The notes: generated by a model not told the origin, from the sequence alone. A stretch of 32,000 nt of DNA from an uncultured Clostridium sp. (GCA_905204915.1 CAJLBR010000002.1:21661-53660); one strand, 5' to 3'; shown: positions 6,354-31,211, counted from the stretch's first letter. Numbers and translations: made by a program.

Positions 6354-7055
6354 CTAATCACAAACGTAATATCCCATACCTCTTTTTGTTTGAACATATT
6401 GAGGATCAGCAGAATTTTTTTCTATTTTTTCTCTTAATCTTCTAATTGTAACATCGACAGTTCTAGCATCACCATAAAAATCGTATCCCCAAACACCTCT
6501 TAATATTTGTTCTCTTGTAAACACTTGATTTGGTGCAGAAGAAAGCATTTTTAAAAGTTCAAATTCTTTTACTGTAAGATCTATAGTCTTGTTATTAATA
6601 ATGGCAATATAACGTTCTGGATCTATTATCATATCCTTTATTTTTATTCTGTTTTTTGAATTCTTAGAATCTTTTTCTTCTTCTGGTAGCACATGTTTTC
6701 TTAAGTTAGCTTTTACTCTTGCAATAACCTCTCTTATACTGAATGGTTTTGTCATGTAATCATCTGCCCCAAGTTCAAGACCAATTATTTTATCTACAAC
6801 TTCTTCTTTTGCTGTAAGCATAATTATAGGACAAGTTAAATGTTTTCTTAACTCTTTACAAACATTAAATCCATCTATTTTGGGTAGCATTAAGTCTAAT
6901 AAAATTAAATCTGGTTTTAATTCTAAAGCTACTCTTATAGCCTCTTCACCATCATAAACGGCTGTAGTTTGAAATCCTTCTTTAGTTAAGTTAAAATCCA
7001 AAATATCAACAATTGGCTTTTCATCATCAACAATCAAAATTTTCTTCTCATTCAT
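6354..7055 (-). CDS. walR: OmpR-family response regulator, WalR/YycF-like
   Basis: KILIVDDEKPIVDILDFNLTKEG...DLILLDLMLP...IIMLTAK...GADDYMTKPFS...ARVKANLR closely parallels B. subtilis WalR as I recall it. Winged-helix C-terminus ends ...TKRGMGY. Confidence 0.7.
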   Translation of the reverse strand: MNEKKILIVDDEKPIVDILDFNLTKEGFQTTAVYDGEEAIRVALELKPDLILLDLMLPKIDGFNVCKELRKHLTCPIIMLTAKEEVVDKIIGLELGADDYMTKPFSIREVIARVKANLRKHVLPEEEKDSKNSKNRIKIKDMIIDPERYIAIINNKTIDLTVKEFELLKMLSSAPNQVFTREQILRGVWGYDFYGDARTVDVTIRRLREKIEKNSADPQYVQTKRGMGYYVCD

Positions 7056-7143
7056 ACAAACACACCTCGTTATTTTTTTACAAAATAATTATACCATGTA
7101 TACATTTTTTTTGCTACTTTTTTTGAAATTTTTTTAATTTTTT

Positions 7144-7160
7144 TGTAATTTTAATGTAAC
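7144..7160 (+). promoter_or_regulatory. WalR-type direct repeat TGTAAT-N5-TGTAAC
   Basis: Exact fit to the published WalR consensus TGTWAH-N5-TGTWAH, in the walR-like/tspO divergent intergenic region. A third TGTAAC lies at 7175..7180. Confidence 0.35.
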
Positions 7161-7244
7161 CTTATTTTAATTATTGTAACCTACTTAAAATATTTTTAAT
7201 ATATTGGTATTTTTTTCATAGAATAATATTAGGAGTGATACTAA

Positions 7245-7718
7245 ATGAAAAATGTAAATTATAAATTATTAATAACTTTTATAATTGTAGCACTAGCATT
7301 TGGAGGAATAGGAGCATTACTTGGTGGTAATATGGATGCTTTCCAAGAAATAAACAAACCAAGCTTTTCACCTCCAGCAATACTGTTTCCTATAGTGTGG
7401 TCAATTCTATACATATTAATGGGAATATCCTCATATTTAATTTGTGTAAATAACACTGATTTTGAGAAATTTAAATATAAAGCTTTAGGTGTATATTTAG
7501 TTCAATTAATTATAAATAGTTTATGGACATTATTTTTCTTTAGACTAGAGTGGTTTTTATTTGCGTTCATATGGTTAATTTTATTACTAGTATTTGTTAT
7601 AATAATGTTTATAAAATTTTATAAAATATCACCAATTGCTGGACTTTTACAAATACCTTATGTATTGTGGTTAATATTTGCAGGTGTATTAAATTATGCA
7701 ATTTACACTTTAAATTAA
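7245..7718 (+). CDS. tspO: TspO/MBR tryptophan-rich sensory protein
   Basis: Five TM segments with Trp-rich motifs (FPIVWSILYILMG, NSLWTLFFF). AGGAG RBS. Confidence 0.85.
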   Translation: MKNVNYKLLITFIIVALAFGGIGALLGGNMDAFQEINKPSFSPPAILFPIVWSILYILMGISSYLICVNNTDFEKFKYKALGVYLVQLIINSLWTLFFFRLEWFLFAFIWLILLLVFVIIMFIKFYKISPIAGLLQIPYVLWLIFAGVLNYAIYTLN

Positions 7719-7737
7719 AAAATAATAAATGAAAAAA

Positions 7738-7768
7738 ACTTGAGTCAAAATTACTCAAGTCTTTTTTT
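7738..7768. terminator. Bidirectional intrinsic terminator
   Basis: Stem ACTTGAGT (7738..7745) / ACTCAAGT (7753..7760), flanked by A-run and T-run. Confidence 0.7.
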
Positions 7769-7793
7769 GTTTTAAACATTAAATATGCAAATA

Positions 7794-9119
7794 CTACATA
7801 TCACTCATTACATATTCTTTAAATTTGTTTCCTCTATCTTCAAAATTCTTAAAGTGAGTATAGCTAGCAGCTGCTGGTGACATAGCACAAATCATACCTT
7901 TTTTAGTTATTTTTTTTGCATAAAAAGTAGCATCTTTTAAGTCATCAAAATATTTAACATTCTTCGTTGTATTTTCATCCATTAACATATTCAATATTTT
8001 TTTGCCTGTTTCATAAACGCATATTATATTTTCTACATTACACTCATTAAGATATTTAGCAAATTCCTCATATTCTATTCCTCTATCCATACCGCCTATT
8101 ATAATCGTGTTAACATTTTTTAAAGTTTCTATACACATTATTGCAGCTTCTGGAATTGTTGCAATTGAATCATTATAATATGTTACATCGTCAAAAGTAC
8201 CTACTTTTTCTAGTCTATGTGGTAATGATTTAAATTCATATGTAGTATTTGTTGCTCTTTTTAAATCAAGATTTAAAATTTTAGATATTTCTAATGCAAC
8301 CATAATATTAAATGCATTGTGTTCACCTAAAATTCCTCTTTCATGATTAAAATCAAAGAAATCATATTTTTCCTTTTGTTTAATGCTTATAGGAATTAAA
8401 TTAGATTTTAAATTAGCACTATTTATATGTTTTAAAAGAAGTTCATCATTTGCATTAAATATAGCAAAGTCTTCCTTAGTCTGATATCTTAGCACATTTA
8501 CCTTTGAATTTATATATTCTTCATAAGAATTATAATGATCAAGATGCTCTTCAAAAACATTTAATACAACTCCAATATGTGGAGAATGTTTTATGTATTG
8601 AGCTTGATGTGAAGAAATTTCTATTACTACAATATCATTTTTACTAATTTCATCTATTTCTGTAAATATTGGCTTACCTATATTACCTAAAAAGTGAACA
8701 TTTCCAGTTTGTTCTCTTATTATACTATATATAAGAGAAGAAGTTGTACTTTTACCTTTAGTTCCCGTAATACCAATTGTTAAAGAATCTGTATATTTCA
8801 AAAACATTTCTAACTGAGATGTTATTTTAGATTCAAATGAAGATATATCTACTCCCTTAAAAGAAATTCCAGGAGATTTAAAAATAATATCGTACTCATT
8901 TAAAAGTTCTAGATATTCGTGAGTTTTTATAACATTTAAATTCATATCCTCGTAATATTCTTTATTATCTTCACTTAAAATGTCTATATTTTCATCTATT
9001 ACATCTATTACAATATCACCTAAATGTTTCCTTAAAAACTCATAAGTTGATTTTCCTTCTCTTCCAAAACCCAAAATAACAATTCTTTTATTTTCTAATT
9101 CTTTTATCATCTCTTGCAT
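7794..9119 (-). CDS. murD: Mur ligase of MurD type (UDP-MurNAc-L-Ala:glutamate ligase); D- or L-Glu specificity unresolved
   Basis: N-terminal Rossmann motif VILGFGREGKS and Mur ligase P-loop GITGTKGKSTT. Its ATG directly abuts the upstream stop (TAAATG at 9117..9122). Confidence 0.8.
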   Translation of the reverse strand: MQEMIKELENKRIVILGFGREGKSTYEFLRKHLGDIVIDVIDENIDILSEDNKEYYEDMNLNVIKTHEYLELLNEYDIIFKSPGISFKGVDISSFESKITSQLEMFLKYTDSLTIGITGTKGKSTTSSLIYSIIREQTGNVHFLGNIGKPIFTEIDEISKNDIVVIEISSHQAQYIKHSPHIGVVLNVFEEHLDHYNSYEEYINSKVNVLRYQTKEDFAIFNANDELLLKHINSANLKSNLIPISIKQKEKYDFFDFNHERGILGEHNAFNIMVALEISKILNLDLKRATNTTYEFKSLPHRLEKVGTFDDVTYYNDSIATIPEAAIMCIETLKNVNTIIIGGMDRGIEYEEFAKYLNECNVENIICVYETGKKILNMLMDENTTKNVKYFDDLKDATFYAKKITKKGMICAMSPAAASYTHFKNFEDRGNKFKEYVMSDM

Positions 9120-10535
9120 TTATAGCACCTTCAATTCATTTTTTAACAACTCTTCAAATTTAGTTGGCAAATTATTATTACAATAACCTTTTAATAGTTT
9201 TTCTCTATTTTCTTCAACTACTTTTTTCACACTATCTATGTTATTATTATATTCATTATTAAAATATTCATTTAGTAAAATTGGCATAAAATCTTTATTT
9301 TTACATTTTAATATGTGTGAACACAAAGAATAATTTATTTCTTCATAAGTGCCAACACAGTCAAATGGTTTATTATCACCCTTACCTATAAGTTCAATAA
9401 ATGTTTGTCTTAATGATCCTTTATTAAGCAAATTTTCACCAAATATTTTTATCATTTTATCTTCATCTAAAAATTGTGATAACATTATATATACAAATAA
9501 ACACTTTGAACAATTAGCACACCATATATTTTTCTTGCTACCAACATTACAGCTTTTGAATACTGGGTGATATTTTTCATATCTAGCAAATAATGCTGTT
9601 ATTTGAAGTTCAGTAAGTGGTCTTAATAAACTAAAATATTGAGTTCCAGTCTTTAAATATGTATCTGAATAATATCTAAAATCGTTTTCAAATTCAATAC
9701 TTTTAGAATACTGATGATTTATAGTAGTTCCAACAACATTTGGTTCATTAGCGCTAGATTCATTAGATAATACAATATATTTCTTTCTTGAGATATATGC
9801 AATAAATGTAGTTAAAAAAGCAAGCATAGCAGAAAATGGAGTATGACCATTTAAGAATCCTTTTTGATTTAGTTCTAACATATTTTTATCTAGAATTCTT
9901 TCTATTATTATAGTATCATCTTCATAACCAGCTGCACTAGTGCTTTCAATAGTAGCTCCTCTAGCATTAACGATAAACGCAGTATTTTCATTTTTTAGTG
10001 TTCTTAGAACTTCCATTGTAACATTTGAGTCTTTTCCACCGCCAACTGGTATAAGTTGTCCTTTTAATTCTACAGGAGATTCTAAAGCTAAATTTTTAAA
10101 GTCTTCATTTGATTTAATTATAATAAATTCATCTTCATTAACATCGATATTGTTTATATAGAAAAATTCTCCTAAACCATTTAAATAAAGTTTTTTGAAC
10201 CATATTTTTTGATCATCGTTTAAATAACCACATTCTATAATTAATTTTTTTGAACATGTAAGTTTTAAATAACTTACAACTTCAACCATACCAATATTAA
10301 ATACCAAATTTTTAACTATATTAGAAGTTACATCAATACTTTGATCAAATCCATTTTTTCTTAAAGTATCCTTTATTTTATCAGTTGGAATTATTAGTTT
10401 AGGATTAAATGTTGAAAGTCCTACAATTTCGAATTCAAACTCTACAACAATATTTTGATTTTCTATTTCAATCTTATAATCATGATATATAAAAGTATCA
10501 TATTTTTCTCTAAATTCTTTATATTTATTATTCAT
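9120..10535 (-). CDS. PP-loop (adenine nucleotide alpha-hydrolase-like) protein; candidate MurL-type UDP-MurNAc-L-Ala-L-Glu epimerase
   Basis: PP-loop-like VGGGKDSNVT. C-terminal Cys cluster C-x10-C-x2-C-x2-C (SCNVGSKKNIWCANCSKC). Translationally coupled to the murD-type gene. Function is inferred, not demonstrated. Confidence 0.5.
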   Translation of the reverse strand: MNNKYKEFREKYDTFIYHDYKIEIENQNIVVEFEFEIVGLSTFNPKLIIPTDKIKDTLRKNGFDQSIDVTSNIVKNLVFNIGMVEVVSYLKLTCSKKLIIECGYLNDDQKIWFKKLYLNGLGEFFYINNIDVNEDEFIIIKSNEDFKNLALESPVELKGQLIPVGGGKDSNVTMEVLRTLKNENTAFIVNARGATIESTSAAGYEDDTIIIERILDKNMLELNQKGFLNGHTPFSAMLAFLTTFIAYISRKKYIVLSNESSANEPNVVGTTINHQYSKSIEFENDFRYYSDTYLKTGTQYFSLLRPLTELQITALFARYEKYHPVFKSCNVGSKKNIWCANCSKCLFVYIMLSQFLDEDKMIKIFGENLLNKGSLRQTFIELIGKGDNKPFDCVGTYEEINYSLCSHILKCKNKDFMPILLNEYFNNEYNNNIDSVKKVVEENREKLLKGYCNNNLPTKFEELLKNELKVL

Positions 10536-13301: not shown

Positions 13302-13321
13302 TACTATTCACCTCTAACAAA

Positions 13322-13406
13322 AATCACCAAACACATAGAGATTCATGCTTATTGCTGCTTCCTTCCGGACCTGACAAGATTCACACTGCTCTATCGTTTG
13401 GTGGTA
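13322..13406 (-). ncRNA. ffs: Small (4.5S-type) signal recognition particle RNA
   Basis: Minus strand contains the conserved domain IV core GUCAGGUCCGGAAGGAAGCAGC. Closing helix CCACCAAAC/GUUUGGUG. Classic Firmicute position just upstream of dnaX. Ends are approximate. Confidence 0.85.
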
Positions 13407-14268: not shown

Positions 14269-16200
14269 TTAATGATTATCTGTTTCTCCAAATAATTCAT
14301 CAAATTTCTTTTCTAACTCAGCTTGAAGATCAAATTTTTCAATTTCTTGTGCTGTACCGGCACTGCTAGAAGCTGCTGGTTTTGGTTGTTCAGTTTGTTC
14401 CTTTCTGTAATTTTTAGCTTTTCTAGCTCTATCATCTAAATGCTTGTATACATCCATTGTATGTATTTCAACATCATCAGTTTTTGGCATTTGTGATATA
14501 TCGCCAATTTCATATTGTTTAGCAACATCTCTTTCTGGATGATATTTAAAATACCAAGCTTTTTTAGCTCTAATTGGTTTTAATCCTCTTACAAGTATAA
14601 TTTCATCATTAAAGTCTAATCTCTTTAATTCATCGACTGTCATAAGTTCTCTTGCTTGTTTTTGTTTACTTATTGAAACACCTTGTTTAGACATTTCATC
14701 CTTGTCTTTACTTACAGATCTGCTTTCATATTCTATTGTCTTTTGACCTAAACTCTTAGAAAAATACTCACAAGTTTTTATTGATTGGCTTCCCAAGAAA
14801 AGTTGGGTATCACAGTTACCGATAATGTTCTCATATGTGTCTTTATAAAGTCCTTCTAATTGATCCAAACTCTGTACAACAATAGATATACTAATACCCA
14901 AACTTCTAGTTGTACTAAGTTTTTTATTAAAGTCTGGAATTTGTCCAATATTTGCAAATTCATCTAGCAAGAAATATACTTGATGATGAAGTGTTCCACC
15001 ATTTCTATCAGCTTGAGTATAAAGTTTTTGTAACATTTGGCTAAAGAATATAGTTGCAATGTAATCATATGTGCTATCAGCAGCAGAAGTAATTACAAAT
15101 AATGCTGTTTTTTCTTCACCTAACTCATCAAAATCTATGTTGTTTGATGTAGTTATTCTCATCATTGGTGGTGAGTCAAAAGCACTTAGTTTAGATACTA
15201 ATGAAATTGCTATACTTTGTTTTGTTTTATCAGCACCAACTCTTATTCCTTCATATTCTTTTCTACCAGGATGGTCTGGTTTTAATTCATCAATAAATAA
15301 TTTATCAAATATTGATTCATCAGCTCCACCTTGTCTTACAATATTTAAACAACTTGATAAGTTTTGTTCTTCTGGTGGTAACACGGATATAACGTAATAA
15401 ATACATGCTTTAAGTAACATTTTGGCAGTATTATCCCAAAATGGATCTGCAGATTTTGAGCTATCTCCACTACTTCCCATAACTATTGTATGTGCTATTA
15501 TATCAACACTAGTATGATCTATAATATGAGCAAGTGGATTATATCTATCACTATACTCTGGATTTACCAAGTTTAAAGTTCTAACTTTATAACCATTAGC
15601 TTTAAGATATCCTGAAGTCTCTCTATAAAGCTCTCCTTTTGGATCTGTTATAACGTATGAACCCAATTTTTGTAAAATATTAGGCTTAATATAACATGCA
15701 GATTTACCTGCACCAGATCCACCAATTACTAAGATATTTTTATTTATCTTTACTTTTTTAAGATCTGTACCTAAGTAATGATTTTTACTTAGTATAAATC
15801 CATCTTTTCTATTTAAAATTTCGCTTCCATCTGATAGTTTTCTAAATTCTTCTCCGCCTTTACTCCATTCACTTGAACCATGTTCTTTTCCTTCGTATTC
15901 ACTTTTGCCAGCCATTTTTATCTTCCAATATATGAAAACAGCAAGACAAATTATTAAAGCCCATAATGACCATGTTAGAAATCCTCCAAAATCTTTAAAC
16001 ATTGCAGGAAATATTCCAGGAACATCCGAACTAAATGGATGAGTTAAAGCTGGTACAAAATTTTGAAAACCAGCCATCAAACCTTCAACTTTTCCAAGTT
16101 CTTTAGCTTGATAAGATGCAAACAAAGCACCAACTAGTACAATATCAAAAATAAGATATAGTACCAAAAACATAAGAATTTCTCTTTTTAAATTACTCAT
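14269..16200 (-). CDS. VirD4/TraG-family type IV secretion coupling protein (T4CP)
   Basis: Two N-terminal TM segments. Walker A VIGGSGAGKSACYIKPNIL followed by ITDPKGELY. Walker B YFLLDEFANIG. VVQSLDQLEGLY...TQLFLG block. Acidic C-terminal tail. Confidence 0.85.
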   Translation of the reverse strand: MSNLKREILMFLVLYLIFDIVLVGALFASYQAKELGKVEGLMAGFQNFVPALTHPFSSDVPGIFPAMFKDFGGFLTWSLWALIICLAVFIYWKIKMAGKSEYEGKEHGSSEWSKGGEEFRKLSDGSEILNRKDGFILSKNHYLGTDLKKVKINKNILVIGGSGAGKSACYIKPNILQKLGSYVITDPKGELYRETSGYLKANGYKVRTLNLVNPEYSDRYNPLAHIIDHTSVDIIAHTIVMGSSGDSSKSADPFWDNTAKMLLKACIYYVISVLPPEEQNLSSCLNIVRQGGADESIFDKLFIDELKPDHPGRKEYEGIRVGADKTKQSIAISLVSKLSAFDSPPMMRITTSNNIDFDELGEEKTALFVITSAADSTYDYIATIFFSQMLQKLYTQADRNGGTLHHQVYFLLDEFANIGQIPDFNKKLSTTRSLGISISIVVQSLDQLEGLYKDTYENIIGNCDTQLFLGSQSIKTCEYFSKSLGQKTIEYESRSVSKDKDEMSKQGVSISKQKQARELMTVDELKRLDFNDEIILVRGLKPIRAKKAWYFKYHPERDVAKQYEIGDISQMPKTDDVEIHTMDVYKHLDDRARKAKNYRKEQTEQPKPAASSSAGTAQEIEKFDLQAELEKKFDELFGETDNH

Positions 16201-16219
16201 ATATAACCTCTTTATAAAA

Positions 16220-16540
16220 CTATATTATTAATTCATCTCCGTCATCCATTACAGGATCTTCATTTATTTGTTCTATTTCTTTTTCTTCTCTATCTTCTTT
16301 TTCTTTATCTTCCTTTTCGTCTTTATAACTAATTTCTACATTTCCTTGAGGATTTGTTGAAATATTTTCTATATTATCCTTGTTAGCTGCAACAACCTTC
16401 TTTAATTCTTCCTCTTTAGTATCAATTGCTTTCTTTTCAGGAGTTGCTATTTGACCAACAACTAAACTTGCTTTTGACTTAGGTACTAATTCTTTTTCGT
16501 TTACCTCTGTTACCAAAGCATCTACAATTATTTTTCCCAT
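16220..16540 (-). CDS. Highly acidic, probably disordered protein (106 aa)
   Basis: AAGGAGA RBS. 15-nt and 19-nt gaps to flanking genes. Glu/Lys/Asp-rich, ending DDGDELII. Confidence 0.6.
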   Translation of the reverse strand: MGKIIVDALVTEVNEKELVPKSKASLVVGQIATPEKKAIDTKEEELKKVVAANKDNIENISTNPQGNVEISYKDEKEDKEKEDREEKEIEQINEDPVMDDGDELII

Positions 16541-16555
16541 ATATATTTCTCCTTG

Positions 16556-17077
16556 TTAATCTTCATATCTTAATTCCAAAACAATATATGCTTTGTTTGG
16601 AAGTATTTTACATCTTCCTTTTATTCCACCAGTTATAGAATCTCTATATACAACTGGTTTAATTTCTTCACCAGTTTGAGTGTCAATAATAGAAAAATGT
16701 CTTTTATAATTAGGAGTATAATCTACTTCTTTATACTCAACACCAGCTTGATTAAATATTGAACCATAAGTTAATGGCACATTTGATTGTGTTGCCTTAA
16801 ATCCAGAATCTGAAAGTTCACCTGTACTAATAATTGCTCTAGAATTAGTAAGTGTAAGTAAAACTATAAGTTGACTTTCTTCGCCCGCTTTTAAAACATT
16901 AAATGTTTTCTTTATTCTTCCAGCATCTTGAGTATCTATACTCTCTATTTTTTGTAATGATAACATTGCATTACCATTAATTTTTTCATTTTCATTCTTT
17001 TCTACTAGAAAAGCTATAGTATTCATTCCAGGCATATCAATAACATCAAATTGATTCATATCTAATAATGATTCCAT
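16556..17077 (-). CDS. Cytoplasmic protein of unknown function (173 aa)
   Basis: GAGGGGGA RBS. No signal peptide or TM segment. Embedded in the operon. Confidence 0.6.
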   Translation of the reverse strand: MESLLDMNQFDVIDMPGMNTIAFLVEKNENEKINGNAMLSLQKIESIDTQDAGRIKKTFNVLKAGEESQLIVLLTLTNSRAIISTGELSDSGFKATQSNVPLTYGSIFNQAGVEYKEVDYTPNYKRHFSIIDTQTGEEIKPVVYRDSITGGIKGRCKILPNKAYIVLELRYED

Positions 17078-20284: not shown

Positions 20285-20313
20285 AAACAAAAAAGAATCC
20301 ACAAAGTGGATTC
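20285..20313 (-). terminator. Intrinsic terminator after RNase P RNA
   Basis: Stem GAATCCAC / GTGGATTC with a 3-nt loop, then TTTTTTGTTT on the minus strand. Confidence 0.7.
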
Positions 20314-20643
20314 TTCAAGCATTTCGTAAGCCGGATTCTGTTTTAAATAGTCATTTATCTTGAACTAGTATTGCTACTAATCTCTAGCCACCAACCACGA
20401 AAGATGGCGGGCCACCTTAACCTTTCTCATCTGGTGTTGCACCGAGTGGGGTTTACACTATCCATATGTCTCCATACGGATCCGTAAGCTCTTACCTCAC
20501 GTTTTCACCCTTACCGATAAAATCGGCGGTTATTTTCTGTTGCACTTTCCTTAGGATCACTCCCACTAGACGTTATCTAGCACCCTTGCCCTATGGTGTC
20601 CGGACTTTCCTCATACCAAAGGTACGCGACTATTTGAAATACT
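20314..20643 (-). ncRNA. rnpB: RNase P RNA (M1 RNA)
   Basis: Minus strand carries GAGGAAAGUCCGGAC, ACAGAAAAUAACCGCC, GGUAAGGGUGAAA, GUAAACCCCAC and ACAGAAUCCGGCUUA universal-core motifs. P1 pairing UUCAA...UUGAA. Ends are approximate. Confidence 0.9.
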
Positions 20644-20650
20644 TATGATA

Positions 20651-24834: not shown

Positions 24835-25854
24835 CTAATTTATTTTCTTCTTTTTTAATCTGATATCTTCACCAACGAATTTACAAATAATAAAGTTCCC
24901 TATTAATCTTGACATTACTCTTTCATCATACTCTTTATAAAGATCGTTTAAAGTCAAGTTAGTAGAAATAAGTATTTTTTTATTATTTAAAATTCTAGTA
25001 TTTATAATATTAAAAAGTTCAGTAAATTTCATATTATTCATACTCTCTGTACCAAGATCATCGATAATTAACAAGTCAGAATCAAAAATTTTCTTATATT
25101 CAGAAGCCTCTTTGTTGTCCTTCTTATTAGAAAATTTATATTCTATAATTTTATCCATCAAAATTGGTGCAGTTTGATATACTACAGATTTATTATTTTT
25201 TATAAGTTTACCTGCTATACAATTAGCTAAAAATGTTTTTCCCAGTCCTGTATTTCCAGTAAATAATAAATTTTTTTGTTCTTTCAAATCAATGTTGTCA
25301 CAAAATTTTAGTGACAGTTTCCTTATTGCCTCTATGTTTTCTAATGGTGATTTATCAATTCCATATTTTTGCTTATCAGGATTTTTAGAATAAAATCCTA
25401 TATCAAAAGTTTCAAAATTTTCATCCTTAAGACTTAACATATTAGCTTCATTAAAACTCTCGTTTATTACTTGTTGTAAAAAGCATGAACAATATTTTGT
25501 ATTCTTTTTATCATCTAAAACAAAACCTGTATCATTGCAAAGCTTACAATCAAAGTCAGGTTCAAAGTCTTCAGGAGTATACCCTAACTTTTTTAGTTCT
25601 TTTTCTATTTTTTCCTCAAGAGATTTAATTTTTATTTGCAAATTTTCTTGTTCAATTTGTTTCTTTAATTCATCATGTGTTGTAAGAATAGTTCTAGTAA
25701 CTTCTAATCCCAATTGATTGATGCTTTCTTGAAGTTCTTGCAATTTAGGATCTTTATTAAACACACTATCTTTCTTATATTTAGCTGCCCTAATTTTTTC
25801 GTCTCTTTTACTATCATATTCTGCTTTGACTTTTGCATATGCTTCATTATTCAT
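24835..25854 (-). CDS. DnaC/DnaI-type replicative helicase loader (AAA+)
   Basis: N-terminal Cys-rich module (CKLCNDTGF...YCSC), Walker A GNTGLGKTFL, Walker B LLIIDDLG. ATG 25854 is preferred (GGAG 9 nt upstream); the ORF-track start at 25869 is TTG. Confidence 0.85.
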   Translation of the reverse strand: MNNEAYAKVKAEYDSKRDEKIRAAKYKKDSVFNKDPKLQELQESINQLGLEVTRTILTTHDELKKQIEQENLQIKIKSLEEKIEKELKKLGYTPEDFEPDFDCKLCNDTGFVLDDKKNTKYCSCFLQQVINESFNEANMLSLKDENFETFDIGFYSKNPDKQKYGIDKSPLENIEAIRKLSLKFCDNIDLKEQKNLLFTGNTGLGKTFLANCIAGKLIKNNKSVVYQTAPILMDKIIEYKFSNKKDNKEASEYKKIFDSDLLIIDDLGTESMNNMKFTELFNIINTRILNNKKILISTNLTLNDLYKEYDERVMSRLIGNFIICKFVGEDIRLKKKKIN

Positions 25855-25872
25855 ACTAAAAATCTCCAATCA

Positions 25873-26823
25873 TTAAACATTATCATAAAAAGATTCTAAG
25901 TCATCATAAGTTCTTTGCTCATAGCTTTGGTATTTTGTTTTTGGAACTGTTTTTTTAGTAGTAGTAACTGTCTTTTTAGTTTCTTTTTGTTCTACATCTT
26001 CAACTGTTTTAACACCTTTTTTGTGCCAATTGCTTATTATACCATTTATATAACTTATAGTAGGATTGCAAATATTAACAGTTCTTTTTAATGCTTCTTC
26101 AATTATATCTATACCATATCCATAGTCTTTTATCCAAGTATCCACATATTTTTCTTCATATGTTGTAAGATTTCTATTTAGTTTTAAATTCTTAACAATT
26201 TTTTGTTTTATCTTTTGAATCTTGTCATAATTTTCAAAATAGTCTTCTAGATCTTCAAATGATTTTACTCCAGCCTTATACCATCCTTCTGCAACCGCAT
26301 GAACATATTTTTTAGTAAGAGCATTTTTTTCCTGACAGTAATGAAACAAAGCAATCATTACTTCCTCAGAGAACATGTAATTATCAAACATGGCACCAAT
26401 ATCAGAATACCATCCTATAGACATTATTCCTTGGAAAAAGCTTTCATTAATTGCATACGTTGCAGCAATTCTCTTTTTCTCAATTTCAGTTTGCTCTTTA
26501 TTTTTCTTGTTTGCCATTTTAGGAATATAAGATTTATTTATCTCAACTTCCTTCAAATCAGCCAAACTATATCCATGAGTATTTTTTATAACTAATCCTT
26601 CAACTTGAAGCCTATCTAGACTAAATCCCAGCTCTTGTTCTGTTATTCCCAAACGTTTTGCAAGAGCAGCATTTTCTATTTCTAATCCTCTTTTAGCTAT
26701 AAAATTTAAATATAAGTACAATTTAACATCAGTTCCTTCTAAAGAACTCATATAATTTAGTACAAATAAGTCTGGCACTTCAATATCACTTAGTTCCAGC
26801 TTGCTTTTCTGTGAAATTTTCAT
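25873..26823 (-). CDS. DnaD-domain replication initiation/primosome protein (DnaB/DnaD-like)
   Basis: Winged-helix N-terminus and DnaD-like repeats (...ALFHYCQEKN..., IISNWHKKGVKT). Upstream partner of the loader gene, as in Firmicute dnaB-dnaI. Confidence 0.75.
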   Translation of the reverse strand: MKISQKSKLELSDIEVPDLFVLNYMSSLEGTDVKLYLYLNFIAKRGLEIENAALAKRLGITEQELGFSLDRLQVEGLVIKNTHGYSLADLKEVEINKSYIPKMANKKNKEQTEIEKKRIAATYAINESFFQGIMSIGWYSDIGAMFDNYMFSEEVMIALFHYCQEKNALTKKYVHAVAEGWYKAGVKSFEDLEDYFENYDKIQKIKQKIVKNLKLNRNLTTYEEKYVDTWIKDYGYGIDIIEEALKRTVNICNPTISYINGIISNWHKKGVKTVEDVEQKETKKTVTTTKKTVPKTKYQSYEQRTYDDLESFYDNV

Positions 26824-26888: not shown

Positions 26889-27212
26889 TTACTTGTATAT
26901 TTCACCTTTAAATTTTTTTACATTAGAACTAACAAATATTTTTCTACTTAACATATATTTTATTATAAACATAAGTGCTTCTATAGAATTTTCTTCCTTA
27001 CAACTAATTAGTATTAAAGCTACTATTGGAATACTGGTTCCACAAAAAACACTAAATGCTGTTTCTAGTTCTATTTTTAAACTTGAAAATAACTTTATAC
27101 TTACTAAAACATAAATTAGCAAAAATAAAATTAGTCTATAATCAATTATTCCTAACCACTTATTATTTCTTTTAAAATTTAAGTAATAATAATTCTTATT
27201 TTTTATCTCCAT
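26889..27212 (-). CDS. Small two-TM membrane protein, VirB3/PrgI/TcpE-like candidate
   Basis: 107 aa with two hydrophobic helices (LILFLLIYVLVSIKLF; FCGTSIPIVALILISC) after a basic N-terminus. Starts 7 nt after the upstream stop, with GAGG overlapping it. Confidence 0.4.
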   Translation of the reverse strand: MEIKNKNYYYLNFKRNNKWLGIIDYRLILFLLIYVLVSIKLFSSLKIELETAFSVFCGTSIPIVALILISCKEENSIEALMFIIKYMLSRKIFVSSNVKKFKGEIYK

Positions 27213-27219
27213 TCATACC

Positions 27220-28056
27220 TCACAATTTTTCTTTATTTGAACTAAAAATAGATATATTGGCCATAATATGATTTACTAAATCATTCAATTTAAATATTAT
27301 ATAAATTGTGCCTAATAATATAACTTTAAATAACATACCTTTTTTATCAGTTACTGCTAAAGGAATTAATATTATAAACTTTATAAATACTTGAACAGAT
27401 AGATTGGTTATAATTAGTTTAAACCAGGTTTCAAATATGCCTCTAGTCGAGTCACTTGCTAAAAACATAAAGCTAAACGGGGCTATAAGTATCAAAAATA
27501 TTACTTTTACATATCTTACAGAAAAACTAATTAAAACATTTATTATTCCAAAAGATATCATTCCTTTTATTAATCCATCAATACTTAAAGCATCATTTTT
27601 CATCAGGTCATCAACAGATAAAATAACTTCTTTTAAATTGTTAAATGTTGCAGGTTTATTTATCATAAATTCTATTATTTTATCAACACAGTCGGTAATC
27701 ATTCCAAATAAATTTAAGATTTGTTCACAAAACCAATATCCATTTGTAACCAATATAGATATTACCAATATTTTAGTTAAATATAAAAAGATATTTTCGC
27801 ATTTACTTCCGTTGTATATGGCTATTAATTGTTTTAATATAAAACATATTGTAAATATCATTATAAGACTTCTTGCTAATGTCTGTATTAACTCTATATT
27901 ATTTATTTTTAAAATTAGTTTTAAGGGTTCCACCTTTAGTATTTTCTCATCTATACGTATTATATCATCTAATAATTTATAAACCTTATCGTCTATATTT
28001 TTTATTATTTTTTCAGATAACATATTTAAACTATTAATTATATTTTGACTTTCCAT
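27220..28056 (-). CDS. Polytopic membrane protein, VirB6/TrbL-like candidate
   Basis: 278 aa with at least 5 predicted TM segments by eye. Start overlaps the upstream stop (TAATG). Confidence 0.45.
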   Translation of the reverse strand: MESQNIINSLNMLSEKIIKNIDDKVYKLLDDIIRIDEKILKVEPLKLILKINNIELIQTLARSLIMIFTICFILKQLIAIYNGSKCENIFLYLTKILVISILVTNGYWFCEQILNLFGMITDCVDKIIEFMINKPATFNNLKEVILSVDDLMKNDALSIDGLIKGMISFGIINVLISFSVRYVKVIFLILIAPFSFMFLASDSTRGIFETWFKLIITNLSVQVFIKFIILIPLAVTDKKGMLFKVILLGTIYIIFKLNDLVNHIMANISIFSSNKEKL

Positions 28057-28376
28057 TAAATAAGACCATCTATAAATTTAATAATTAAATCAATTGACAA
28101 AACTATTGCATACCCAACTATAGCATTAACAATAACCTTTTTTCCTCTCATCATTTTTTCATCATCACCAAAGCTTAATTTCCTCATCAAAACACCAGCT
28201 GCAATAGCAATTCCCGCCACCGGAGTTGAAAGTTTTACTAAATATCCCTGTATTTTCTTAAACGCTGAATTTAATTTTGTGACTAATGTCGGATCTGTTG
28301 CACCATAAATACTACTAAAAACTAACATAGCTATTACCACTACTGTTACTACAACTATTACCTTTGTTTTATTCAT
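28056..28376 (-). CDS. VirB2/TrbC-like pilin candidate
   Basis: 106 aa with a signal-peptide-like N-terminus ending SSIYGA, then two hydrophobic helices separated by a charged loop (RKLSFGDDEKMMRGKK). GGGAGG RBS. 8-nt overlap with the upstream gene. Confidence 0.5.
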   Translation of the reverse strand: MNKTKVIVVVTVVVIAMLVFSSIYGATDPTLVTKLNSAFKKIQGYLVKLSTPVAGIAIAAGVLMRKLSFGDDEKMMRGKKVIVNAIVGYAIVLSIDLIIKFIDGLI

Positions 28377-30192
28377 TTATATCTTCCTCCCATCTTTTAA
28401 ATTTAACTTTTTTATATATTTTAGTTTCCATGCCATCTGATATTAACGCAAGAGCCTCGAAAGTTTTTAAATTGTAGATTAAATAACTTTCATCTAAGTT
28501 ATAATCTTTGGTTTCAGTTACGGTAAAACTTTGTGAAAGCGAAGTTTTATAACTTCTAAATTTATTTGATAACATGCTATATCTGGAATTATCACCCCCT
28601 TCACTTATACTAAAAGACTTATTTTTATTAGTAATTTTTCCGGTAAGTTTTATTATTTCTTGAATTGTGTACATATCATCATTTCTGAAAAATATTTTAT
28701 TTACAAAATTTTGTATAATTACATTTGCTGATTTTTCATTTTTTAAGGTATTAATAAGAGAACTATAACTTTGCATACTAACAACATTTATGCATTTATA
28801 TTCTCTAGAAATTGAAAAAAAGTGAGCATCTTCTTCATTAACAAATTCTTGATACTCGTCACATATAAAGAAAATATCTTTTCCGCAGTGTTTTGTAACT
28901 ACTTGTCTTTGAAAATCTAATTTTAAATATGTAGATAAAATTTGTGCAATTTTCTTATTGCTACCAAAATCAATTGATAAAACTACAACTTTATTTGAAT
29001 AAAAATCTAATATTTCACTTTTAGAACAAAACTTTTTATTTATTTTATAATCTGATACGAATATACTGGTCATACGTGTAATTTCTGATTTAATGATTCC
29101 TAAAGTTCTTTCATCTAAATTCAAATATTCATTTAAAATATTCTGTATAGCCGAATTAAGTTCAAACAACTCCTCATCTGTGAATTTATTTTTTAAAATA
29201 TTATTTTTAATTTCAGTTATCTTGCTGCTAAGATAGTCTGGATCTATTGCCATACTATGAAGTTCATAAAAACTTACTGAATTATTTAACGCCCTTAAAA
29301 TTACAATAAAACTTCTTATATACTCTTCAGATTTATCTAGCCAATAAGAATCAGAATTATTATTATCACTAATTAGAGTCAGTACTTTTTTTATTATACT
29401 TGCTAACTCAATTGAACTTACGCTAAGATTAAGAGGATTATAACAAAATGAGGAATCTAATGAAATTTCTACTAGTCTATCTTGAAGCTTATATTTTTTT
29501 AAGACATTTTTTACAGTATTTATATAGTTTCCTTTTACATCTATTATCAAACCATAAATTTTATTTTTTATTAAGCTATCTAATATATTTGTAATTGCAG
29601 AACTTGTCTTGCCACTTCCTATACTACCAGTTATTAAAATATTTTGATATAATCCATTTTTTTGCAAACTTACATTATCTTCGTTTTCATCTTTTCCTAA
29701 AAATATGAAACCATTTTCTGTAATATTTTTATTTGGTTTATTTTTTGAAACAATTAAGAGTAAAATTCTATATACTACACAGAATATAAAATAAATTGAA
29801 ATAAAATAATAAAAAAATTTAAAGTATTTATACTTAGAATCTAATATTGTTGAAATACAAAGTTGTTTATTAAAAATTTTAATGTAAAAAAAGTTTGAAA
29901 TTAAAAATTTATATGTTAAAGCTATTTTAATAGCTACTATACTCAAAGATACAAGTATTACAATACCATAATCCTTGTATCCTAATTTAGATGGATTAAT
30001 GACTTTTAAGAAAAAACTCTTTAAAGAAAATTTATTCGGGGCTTGTCCAAAGTTGCAAGTTATATCTTGCAGATTATTGTTTATATATTTTTTTAGTTTT
30101 GTGCCTGAACCAGATAATATAAAAAGTTGATCCACATTGTAATATAACTTATAGAAAAAATAAACAGAAAGAAAAATATAATCAAATATCAT
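28369..30192 (-). CDS. Membrane-anchored T4CP-like (TraD/TrwB/VirD4 superfamily) ATPase, divergent second copy
   Basis: Three to four N-terminal hydrophobic segments. Walker A ITGSIGSGKTSSAI followed by IIDVKGNY. Walker B FFICDEYQEF. Block VVSMQSYSSL...IFFRNDD. ATG 30192 is preferred (AGGTGG 9 nt upstream); the ORF-track start at 30204 is GTG. Confidence 0.65.
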   Translation of the reverse strand: MIFDYIFLSVYFFYKLYYNVDQLFILSGSGTKLKKYINNNLQDITCNFGQAPNKFSLKSFFLKVINPSKLGYKDYGIVILVSLSIVAIKIALTYKFLISNFFYIKIFNKQLCISTILDSKYKYFKFFYYFISIYFIFCVVYRILLLIVSKNKPNKNITENGFIFLGKDENEDNVSLQKNGLYQNILITGSIGSGKTSSAITNILDSLIKNKIYGLIIDVKGNYINTVKNVLKKYKLQDRLVEISLDSSFCYNPLNLSVSSIELASIIKKVLTLISDNNNSDSYWLDKSEEYIRSFIVILRALNNSVSFYELHSMAIDPDYLSSKITEIKNNILKNKFTDEELFELNSAIQNILNEYLNLDERTLGIIKSEITRMTSIFVSDYKINKKFCSKSEILDFYSNKVVVLSIDFGSNKKIAQILSTYLKLDFQRQVVTKHCGKDIFFICDEYQEFVNEEDAHFFSISREYKCINVVSMQSYSSLINTLKNEKSANVIIQNFVNKIFFRNDDMYTIQEIIKLTGKITNKNKSFSISEGGDNSRYSMLSNKFRSYKTSLSQSFTVTETKDYNLDESYLIYNLKTFEALALISDGMETKIYKKVKFKRWEEDINE

Positions 30193-30264
30193 ACAGCAAT
30201 CCACCTAAGTCTATTTTACTACTTTTCATTTTGCTTTTCAAAATATTCTACATTATATTACACA

Positions 30265-30293
30265 ATATTATAAAACTTGCGATTTTCTGACAA
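30265..30293 (-). promoter_or_regulatory. Possible promoter of the four-gene T4SS-like operon
   Basis: Minus strand TTGTCA (30293..30288), 17 nt, TAATAT (30270..30265). Confidence 0.35.
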
Positions 30294-30399: not shown

Positions 30400-30475
30400 G
30401 GGCCATTAGCTCAGTTGGCAGAGCACTTGACTTTTAATCAAGTTGTCCGCAGTTCGAATCTGCGATGGCTCACCA
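30400..30475 (+). tRNA. tRNA-Lys (anticodon UUU), CCA encoded
   Basis: Hand-folded cloverleaf: acceptor GGGCCAT/ATGGCTC, anticodon loop CTTTTAA, T-loop TTCGAAT. Confidence 0.95.
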
Positions 30476-30481
30476 TAAAAT

Positions 30482-30556
30482 GGCCCGTTGGTCAATCGGT
30501 TAAGACATCGCCCTTTCACGGCGGAGTGAGGAGTTCGACTCTCCTACGGGTCACCA
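30482..30556 (+). tRNA. tRNA-Glu (anticodon UUC), CCA encoded
   Basis: Acceptor GGCCCGT/ACGGGTC, anticodon loop CTTTCAC, T-loop TTCGACT. Confidence 0.95.
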
Positions 30557-30562
30557 ATAATT

Positions 30563-30638
30563 GCTGGAATAGCTCAGTTGGTAGAGCAACGGTCTTGTAA
30601 ACCGTAGGTCCTCAGTTCAAATCTGAGTTTCAGCTCCA
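30563..30638 (+). tRNA. tRNA-Thr (anticodon UGU), CCA encoded
   Basis: Acceptor GCTGGAA/TTTCAGC, anticodon loop CTTGTAA, T-loop TTCAAAT. Confidence 0.95.
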
Positions 30639-30766: not shown

Positions 30767-31159
30767 TTATACTTTTTCCAAACATTTTACTTTACTTAAT
30801 GCCGATTTAATATTATCAATATCCATTCTTTCAACCACTTCAACGATATTAAATTTTTTATTTTGAACAATTTCTTCTGATAAGTGAGTAGAAGAATTTA
30901 CTATAACGGGGATTGCTATTTTTCTAGTTGCCATGGTTCTTAGCAAATTAATTCCCTGATATCGGTCATAATCTGTCTCTCCAGAAACCCCAAAACCCAT
31001 ATCCAGGAATATTAAATTACATTCTTCCTTATGTGTTATAATATATTTACAAGCCGTAAGTAAATCGTTTTTTACTGTAATCTCGTGATTTTCATCTTCC
31101 AAATAAAATTTTAACGCTTCAACTTTAAGTTCAGAATCATCCACGATTAAAATTTTCAT
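30767..31159 (-). CDS. Stand-alone response-regulator receiver domain (CheY-like, no output domain)
   Basis: MKILIVDDSE..., phospho-acceptor context IFLDMGF, about 130 aa. ATG 31159 is preferred (GGGAGG 7 nt upstream); the ORF-track start at 31174 is TTG. Confidence 0.7.
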   Translation of the reverse strand: MKILIVDDSELKVEALKFYLEDENHEITVKNDLLTACKYIITHKEECNLIFLDMGFGVSGETDYDRYQGINLLRTMATRKIAIPVIVNSSTHLSEEIVQNKKFNIVEVVERMDIDNIKSALSKVKCLEKV

Positions 31160-31211
31160 ATGCATACCTCCCAAATTATTGGTTAATTATTATTTTGCCT
31201 TAGCTATTATA

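Follow-up and report, generated by a model that had tools for sequence, protein, structure and literature searches.

A conserved four-gene operon of uncultured gut Clostridia as the probable domesticated core of a Gram-positive type IV secretion system

Type IV secretion systems (T4SSs) are commonly treated as machines that are defined by VirB4 and carried on mobile elements. The subject here is a compact group of four T4SS-like genes, g1 to g4, in a 32,000-nucleotide stretch of DNA from an uncultured Clostridium sp. (GCA_905204915.1, CAJLBR010000002.1:21661-53660), which as a whole is called the window. Reading of the open reading frames (ORFs) of the window places g1 to g4 on the minus strand as four coupled ORFs, and the junctions from which an earlier note on this DNA had argued for translational coupling are all present: an 8-nt overlap at 28369-28376, a TAATG at 28056 and a 7-nt gap at 27213-27219. 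The products are predicted to be a membrane-anchored ATPase of the type IV coupling protein (T4CP) family (g1; 28369..30192, 607 aa), a VirB2-type T4SS pilin precursor (g2; 28056..28376, 106 aa), a polytopic VirB6/TrbL-like membrane protein (g3; 27220..28056, 278 aa) and a PrgI/VirB3-like protein with two transmembrane (TM) segments (g4; 26889..27212, 107 aa). The operon lies, as the note had it, between a tRNA cluster and the dnaD- and dnaI-like replication genes. It is probable that this block, which is inherited vertically, represents the domesticated core of a Gram-positive T4SS of the Clostridia plasmid or integrative and conjugative element (ICE) type, fixed in the chromosome of a clade of uncultured gut Clostridia, where it would serve a host function.

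The ORF of g1 runs from 28369 to a GTG at 30204, and its likelier start is an ATG at 30192, with AGGTGG 8 nt upstream, which gives the 607-aa product. Three Pfam families of T4CPs match this protein above their gathering thresholds, TrwB_AAD_bind (2e-12, 47.1 bits; cutoff 20.5), TraG-D_C (6e-8, 33.2 bits; cutoff 22) and T4SS-DNA_transf (1e-6, 28.4 bits; cutoff 20.1), which marks an FtsK/HerA-type P-loop domain of the T4CP kind, and no VirB4 family is among its Pfam matches at E<=1. For the four operon proteins together, NCBIfam returned only a partial SXT_TraD match, on g1, and a PHROGs scan returned nothing meaningful. The core residues of g1 are invariant among 44 orthologues (Walker A G189/G192/G194/K195/T196; D218-K220-G221; Walker B D445/E446; Q474/S475; R503/D506), and the Walker A, Walker B and downstream block motifs quoted in the earlier note are present with these cores intact, although its count of three to four TM segments comes down to two or three, namely two strong segments (residues 76-94 and 130-148) and an N-terminal hydrophobic helix, as judged from hydropathy and an AlphaFold2 (AF2) model. 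In that model (predicted local distance difference test score, pLDDT, 81) an N-terminal membrane anchor is followed by a nucleotide-binding domain into which an all-alpha helical domain is inserted at about residues 260-388. Its best Foldseek matches are to Cag-beta (8dol, 7e-14), TrwB (1e9s, 6.5e-12) and DotL (6sz9), with HerA (8e-10) and the VirB4 C-terminal domain (1e-8) lower, so that in fold g1 is nearer to T4CPs than to VirB4 or to HerA, the latter being one of the unrelated families that had been contemplated beforehand. The profile of the g1 family aligns by hhalign with a second, VirD4-type T4CP of the window at a probability of 93.5%, and with a VirB4-like protein at 16.5%, over the P-loop only; against PDB sequences it finds only DotL (E 0.014). 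A divergent VirB4 was considered and rejected on the Foldseek ranking and on this hhalign contrast. The coupling-protein layout originally proposed for g1 is thereby upheld, and profiles and model support a T4CP-type ATPase rather than a VirB4. T4CPs couple a relaxase-DNA or effector substrate to a T4SS channel, a function that is putative for g1; no relaxase is found in the window.

The remaining three products fall into place around this ATPase with decreasing firmness. Pfam T4SS_pilin (PF18895) matches g2 above its threshold (30.6 bits; cutoff 26.6), with TrbC at 1.7e-4 below its own cutoff, and the protein combines a signal-like segment with two TM helices by hydropathy, which is the VirB2/TrbC pilin topology that had been recognized at the outset. 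In an alignment of 31 orthologues the likely cleavage site, between IYGA and TDP, would leave a very conserved mature pilin of ~80 aa, in which a short, charged, conserved loop (RKLSFGDEEKM) joins the two hydrophobic helices, and hhalign pairs g2 with the pilin of a T4SS on a Vescimonas plasmid (probability 84%, E 8e-6). A VirB2-type pilin precursor is thus supported by profile and topology, and polymerization into a pilus is a prediction only. With at least five TM segments by hydropathy, g3 is polytopic as claimed; the protein of the window scores 18.2 bits against TrbL, below the cutoff of 25.9, and among its orthologues TrbL matches 19 of 30 (best 6.9e-6) and TrbL_4 matches one at 2.7e-8. 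The top eight Foldseek matches in the PDB to its AF2 model (pLDDT 79) are all R388 TrwI/VirB6-TrwJ (VirB6/VirB5) stalk chains, and hhalign aligns it with the VirB6-position proteins of a Symbiobacteriaceae contig and the Vescimonas plasmid at 88-91% (88% for the former), so that a VirB6/TrbL-like identity is likely correct, with no single curated threshold reached; tblastn of g3 against 72,556 plasmids gave no match. Two TM segments by hydropathy and a conserved N-terminal motif (Y.NYKR.NKWLGIIDYK) characterize g4, which aligns over 87 columns with the PrgI domain of a PrgI-VirB4 fusion on the Vescimonas plasmid (hhalign probability 76%, E 2e-5) and did not align to an 81-aa two-TM ORF of the Symbiobacteriaceae contig. 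It is not adjacent to a VirB4, and dnaD comes next. The PrgI/VirB3-like assignment, although it agrees with the original proposal, draws on weaker evidence and is the weakest of the four family calls. The Pfam check that had been recommended for the four proteins thus leaves the T4CP families and T4SS_pilin above threshold, and TrbL, PrgI and VirB3 below.

CONJScan and TXSScan recognize a T4SS by the presence of VirB4, and there is none in the window; no relaxase or integrase domain occurs in its ORFs of at least 110 aa. The observation that VirB4, relaxase and recombinase are all missing from the 32 kb was therefore sound as far as domain searches of the window go. The block was followed in 112 related loci, comprising 32 species-level genomes from a scan of one genome per species and 80 metagenome contigs, with ~20-50 kb read per genome. 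The 32 genomes are metagenome-assembled genomes (MAGs) of uncultured gut Clostridia, including Clostridium sp. CAG:1219, and all have the order g1-g2-g3-g4-dnaD-dnaI, the apparent gaps at g4 being tblastn misses or, in one case, an assembly gap. Over the 112 loci g2 follows g1 in 98 of 100 and g3 comes next in 88 of 89; dnaD (70 of 72) and dnaI (67 of 69) lie downstream. Most of the 80 contigs belong to a deeper sister clade, in which g1 is 40-45% and gyrA ~64% identical; in that clade the block is still joined to dnaD-dnaI despite an inversion of gyrA and a new position of VanW. The four ORFs are conserved and intact in ~100 related loci spanning these two deep clades, and the ratio of nonsynonymous to synonymous substitution (dN/dS) of g1 to g4 is 0.04-0.31 in nine close pairs, compared with 0.006-0.10 for dnaD. 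The four genes evolve faster than dnaD yet are clearly under purifying selection. The linkage of the block to dnaD is tight and not absolute, since six loci (L009:4103-6126, L088, L089, L111, L113 and L149) have 1-3 kb inserted between the two, including in L009 a GNAT-like acetyltransferase. The survey of synteny and selection that had been suggested thus points to a block that is vertically inherited and fixed in the chromosome.

These data bear directly on two rival explanations. One is that it is a decayed, nonfunctional remnant of an ICE or plasmid, as might be read from the loss of VirB4, cell-wall hydrolase, relaxase and integrase at the locus, from the adjoining tRNA genes and from a GC content slightly below that of neighboring genes. 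Set against this are the intact ORFs in ~100 loci, the low dN/dS, the invariant catalytic residues and a promoter that is recognizable in most relatives inspected. The outer limit of the operon had been placed at 30293; since g1 starts at 30204 or, more likely, at 30192, that limit takes in the promoter rather than further coding sequence. A sigma-A-type promoter on the minus strand (TTGAAA-17-TAAAAT, 30213..30241) matches the consensus at 10 of 12 positions ~10 nt upstream of the ribosome-binding site (RBS), and TTGACx-17-TGnTAAAAT at the equivalent place, just upstream of the RBS, is recognizable in most of 17 related upstream regions inspected. The suspicion that the operon is more AT-rich than gyrA proved correct to a modest degree (GC 0.22-0.26, against 0.30-0.31 for gyrA), but the composition is not exceptional, and a foreign origin on this ground was rejected, because other core or housekeeping segments are equally AT-rich (GC 0.23-0.26 at 7001-10500). 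The remnant reading is effectively refuted and has next to no probability left. Of the two options left open in the earlier note, a domesticated machine and a decayed element, the former is strongly supported by conservation and selection.

The other explanation is that the block is part of a complete, ordinary ICE whose VirB4, relaxase and integrase genes lie just beyond the region read, and it draws on the fact that T4SS genes normally reside on ICEs and on the adjacent tRNA cluster. ICEs are recognized by a relaxase, an integrase and variable presence or position; no relaxase or integrase domain was found in the window's ORFs of at least 110 aa, neither gene lies within 10 kb of the block in the 32 genomes, and the position is constant among the 112 related loci. 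Housekeeping genes flank the operon on both sides, with ksgA and the tRNAs upstream and dnaD, dnaI, gyrA, rnpB and dnaX downstream, and the tRNA cluster itself (tRNA-Lys/Glu/Thr, plus strand, 30400..30638), which is divergent and bounds the operon upstream, also adjoins g1 in most relatives checked. For 10 kb to each side of the block an ordinary ICE, the contingency against which the earlier note had guarded, is effectively refuted, and overall we regard it as very improbable. Fixed order, low dN/dS and a recognizable promoter together imply, therefore, that the block is neither a decayed relic nor an ordinary ICE.

Two fuller clusters suggest where a domesticated T4SS core of this kind came from. 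On a Symbiobacteriaceae MAG contig (L059; WREE01000009) the order is parB, a g1 orthologue (hhalign probability 100%, E 1e-61), a T4SS_pilin-like gene, a g3-like polytopic protein, a C39-like peptidase, a two-TM ORF and a VirB4-like ATPase. On plasmid pMM35_02 of Vescimonas fastidiosa (NZ_AP023417.1) it is pilin, VirB6-like protein, hypothetical protein, C39 peptidase and PrgI::VirB4 fusion, with a CD1115-type VirD4 further on, and the first, second and fifth of these genes are homologous to g2, g3 and g4. This plasmid T4SS (L167, 31978-42632 of the record) belongs to a gut member of the Oscillospiraceae, its pilin is annotated as a fimbrial protein, and the plasmid is typed as non-mobilizable by MOB-suite. 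Pilin, VirB6-like and PrgI-like components are thus homologous and in the same order as in the window (hhalign 76-91%), the L059 cluster is headed by a g1-type T4CP as is the operon, and a CD1115-family VirD4 is found on the Vescimonas plasmid as in the window. In contrast, both clusters have in addition a C39-type peptidase and a VirB4, fused to PrgI on the plasmid, which the block is without, and they reside on a plasmid or next to parB, whereas the block is chromosomal, fixed beside dnaD and dnaI and vertically inherited. From these homologies it follows that the block and the orphan VirD4 of the window probably both descend from this class of plasmid and ICE T4SSs; the hydrolase and VirB4 appear to have been lost at the locus, leaving PrgI to stand alone directly before dnaD. 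More distant relatives of g1 were also encountered. Matches of g1 by tblastn to plasmids reach only ~25% identity, mostly on non-mobilizable plasmids, and were set aside as uninformative, their contexts being integrases, type-4 pilins and restriction-modification genes. Acidobacteriota relatives of ~25% identity were set aside as kin of the operon, since they belong to small integrative elements with a VirB11-like ATPase and an integrase and no pilin/VirB6 set. Elements of this type, present in Acidobacteriota and other soil MAGs (L038:6889-13973; also L033, L044, L051 and L075), encode a 97-aa two-TM protein, two to three unknown proteins, the g1-related T4CP-like ATPase, the VirB11-like ATPase and the integrase, and no VirB4 is visible within ~5 kb of them.

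The orphan VirD4 forms part of a second conserved unit, which the earlier survey of T4SS genes in the 32 kb had overlooked. This canonical VirD4-type T4CP (14269-16200, minus strand, 643 aa) matches Pfam T4SS-DNA_transf at 1.5e-80, the NCBIfam family conju_CD1115 at 430 bits (cutoff 250) and Cag5 in the PDB at 2e-14, and it is preceded on the same strand by ORFs for a small acidic product (16220-16540) and for a functionally unassigned protein of 173 aa (16556-17077), the whole unit spanning 14269..17077. Orthologues of the VirD4 are 60-72% identical across the lineage and occur on the same contigs as g1 orthologues. They are always accompanied by an upstream protein of ~170 aa and a small ORF, and the triad stays together in four different housekeeping neighborhoods of related genomes. 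The partner proteins of VirD4 (173 aa and 231 aa) matched nothing in Pfam, NCBIfam or the PDB.

The VirB4 motor is not at the locus, and would be either encoded elsewhere in the genome or replaced by g1. Because the PrgI/VirB3-like protein is retained and under selection, its partner would be expected to persist, whether as a VirB4 elsewhere or as g1 in its place. A truly VirB4-independent minimal machine, in which VirB4 has been lost genome-wide and g1, docked via the PrgI-like g4, carries out both pilin extraction and substrate pumping, is possible but on the whole doubtful. It fits the free-standing PrgI domain of g4, which is followed by dnaD where the related plasmid and MAG clusters have VirB4, and it fits a g1 that heads the operon with all catalytic residues conserved, T4CPs and VirB4 being structurally related paralogues. 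It also fits the searches made: in 32 genomes neither a VirB4-like ORF nor a large P-loop ORF left unexplained was found at up to 10 kb from the block, the surroundings of the VirD4 triad in four genomes have no VirB4-like ORF, and the L059 VirB4 had no phmmer match among 446 ORFs taken from the Clostridia loci. These observations, however, cover only a small part of each genome, and VirB4-like C-terminal fragments are present in three sister-clade contigs (L097:9893-10297, L103:17064-17294 and L105:13830-13904), with a P-loop_TraG match of 1e-12 and 40% identity to the L059 VirB4. The fragments, which adjoin the gene of a conserved protein of 233 aa, lie ~1.4 kb beyond gyrA and ~7 kb from the block; the sister-clade contig L154 has a ParA/CpaE-like gene at this position. 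Moreover, VirB4 alone among T4SS proteins is ubiquitous (PMC4027160), and Rickettsia and Patescibacteria are known to have their T4SS genes dispersed (PMC12102498). A VirB4 elsewhere in the genome is therefore a serious possibility, and independence from VirB4 is unproven.

If the block is, as we favor, the core of a domesticated T4SS, homologous systems suggest how its parts might work together. The VirB6-like g3 would provide both the channel in the membrane and the platform on which the pilin g2, once exported by the Sec pathway and cleaved, is assembled into a short fibre or a conduit across the cell wall; g1 would be the membrane-anchored, hexameric T4CP-type motor, and g4 would tether this motor to the complex in the membrane. 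The VirD4 of the CD1115 family, which is encoded apart from the block and equally conserved, would most likely serve, with its 173-aa partner, as substrate receptor. The locus is immobile and has neither relaxase nor integrase, and a host function is therefore envisaged rather than self-transfer of a mobile element: such a machine may mediate contact-dependent exchange of DNA or proteins with neighboring cells. Several points weigh against this reading. To our knowledge pilus biogenesis needs VirB4 in all T4SSs studied, and none is seen at this locus. The best fold match of g3 is marginal (E 0.015, TM-score 0.37, probability 1.0), the call of g4 depends on sub-threshold Pfam matches to PrgI in 8 and VirB3 in 4 of 26 orthologues, the only recurrent ones, and the profiles of g2, g3 and g4 have no match among PDB sequences at E<=10. 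That the block works together with the distant VirD4 triad is suggested only by co-conservation and shared ancestry, and both the nature of the substrate, be it DNA or protein, and the direction in which it would be moved are conjecture. The hosts are uncultured.

That the linkage to dnaD-dnaI is so constant could have a functional reason, namely a hand-over of single-stranded DNA to the primosome, or a historical one. The dnaD-like gene (25873-26823, minus strand; NCBIfam DnaD_dom) lies directly downstream of the block and is followed by the dnaI/dnaC-like gene (24835-25869, minus strand; NCBIfam PRK06835). TrwB-type T4CPs are DNA-dependent ATPases, and the four proteins might form a membrane complex with a role other than that of a T4SS, for example handling DNA in connection with replication restart or sporulation and passing imported or translocated single strands to the primosome loader. 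The block stays with dnaD-dnaI even where its other flanks are rearranged, the interval from g4 to dnaD showed no minus-strand terminator, and sporulation genes are found near the VirD4 triad in relatives, all of which would suit such a role. Yet dnaD is preceded by a promoter-like site of its own, the six loci with 1-3 kb insertions separate it from the block, and the linkage may simply record an old insertion beside essential genes, so that we consider a role outside secretion quite improbable. The boldest formulation combines both themes, namely that a clade of gut Clostridia possesses a VirB4-free, T4SS-derived machine in which a T4CP paralogue, tethered by a free-standing PrgI/VirB3 protein, drives the assembly, on a VirB6 platform, of a pilus of the VirB2 type in a monoderm cell, for a host function such as the import of DNA whose strand is passed to the DnaD/DnaI primosome loader; as a whole this is an unlikely proposition.

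Other features of the window can be described briefly. A response regulator of 135 aa with a single domain (30767-31174, minus strand; Response_reg 5.5e-9) is encoded close upstream of the operon, in the interval from ksgA to the tRNA cluster; it is an orphan, with no partner kinase adjacent. Genes for RNase P RNA (20312-20645, minus strand, 273 bits) and for the small signal recognition particle RNA (13319-13406, minus strand, 62.7 bits) each lie between protein-coding genes, and the two are taken to explain an ORF-free stretch of higher GC at ~19.5-20.7 kb. The minus strand at 7794-10535 has a Mur ligase gene and, after it, one for a MurL-like UDP-MurNAc-L-Ala-L-Glu epimerase (NCBIfam MurL 1.7e-67, below cutoff), which suggests an alternative route to D-Glu for peptidoglycan; in the related genome L081 an Asp/Glu-racemase-like gene occupies the syntenic position.

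A clade abundant in human and animal guts thus keeps a relaxase-less, chromosome-fixed module of putative pilin, VirB6 and PrgI proteins, together with its own T4CP-paralogue ATPase and an orphan VirD4. No description of this operon was found in the literature on TANB77 and T4SSs, on CAG-1219 or on VirB4-less systems of Clostridia. It would be the second instance, independent of the first, in which a monoderm T4SS has been domesticated, and a natural experiment on the minimum set of parts. Should VirB4 prove absent from the genome, the rule that VirB4 is universal would be overturned, which would be a real surprise; should it be encoded elsewhere, the block would still be part of a new, dispersed T4SS with a host function in an important uncultured gut lineage.

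Among known proteins, g1 compares with the canonical T4CPs TrwB of R388, Cag-beta/VirD4 of H. pylori and DotL, with which it shares the N-terminal TM anchor, the nucleotide-binding domain and the all-alpha domain, at an identity of only 10-15%. Set against them g1 appears to have a long extra two-stranded beta-hairpin at residues ~519-564 (window ~28500-28640), which is modelled with lower confidence (pLDDT ~62 in the AF2 model) and aligns with the L059 orthologue, and it heads an operon of pilin, VirB6 and VirB3 genes, whereas canonical T4CP genes adjoin a relaxase. By analogy, the closest parallels for a host function would be the chromosomal T4SS of Patescibacteria and the archaeal Ced and Ted importers. 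The former is essential (PMC12102498, PMC12857230) and, as described (Quinonero-Coronel et al., 2025, PMC12102498; Wang et al., 2023, as cited in PMC12857230), is like the block in being chromosomal, relaxase-less and lineage-wide in a monoderm host, with a PF18895 VirB2-like pilin, VirB3/PrgI, VirB6 and a T4CP encoded away from the main cluster. As described there, however, it is built around VirB4, together with TrsD, and often has variable pilin arrays, whereas the block has a T4CP-type operon ATPase, a single highly conserved pilin gene, no VirB4 at the locus and a host among the Clostridia. According to a review of December 2025, VirB2 is not found in Gram-positive T4SSs except those of Patescibacteria (PMC12857230); the Vescimonas plasmid shows VirB2-like pilins outside that group, and the Clostridia block with its plasmid relatives would be a further exception. 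The Ced and Ted importers (PMC11868833; Beltran et al., 2023, PMC9905601) are likewise chromosomal, relaxase-less minimal sets of four components, with a polytopic protein like VirB6, a pilin like VirB2, an ATPase that has a TM anchor and a small protein with two TM segments, and in composition they resemble the block. CedB and TedB are nevertheless VirB4 homologues in archaeal hosts, whereas g1 is of the T4CP type in a bacterium, and the block falls outside that family; the likeness is one of composition only and points to a possible way of working (PMC11868833).

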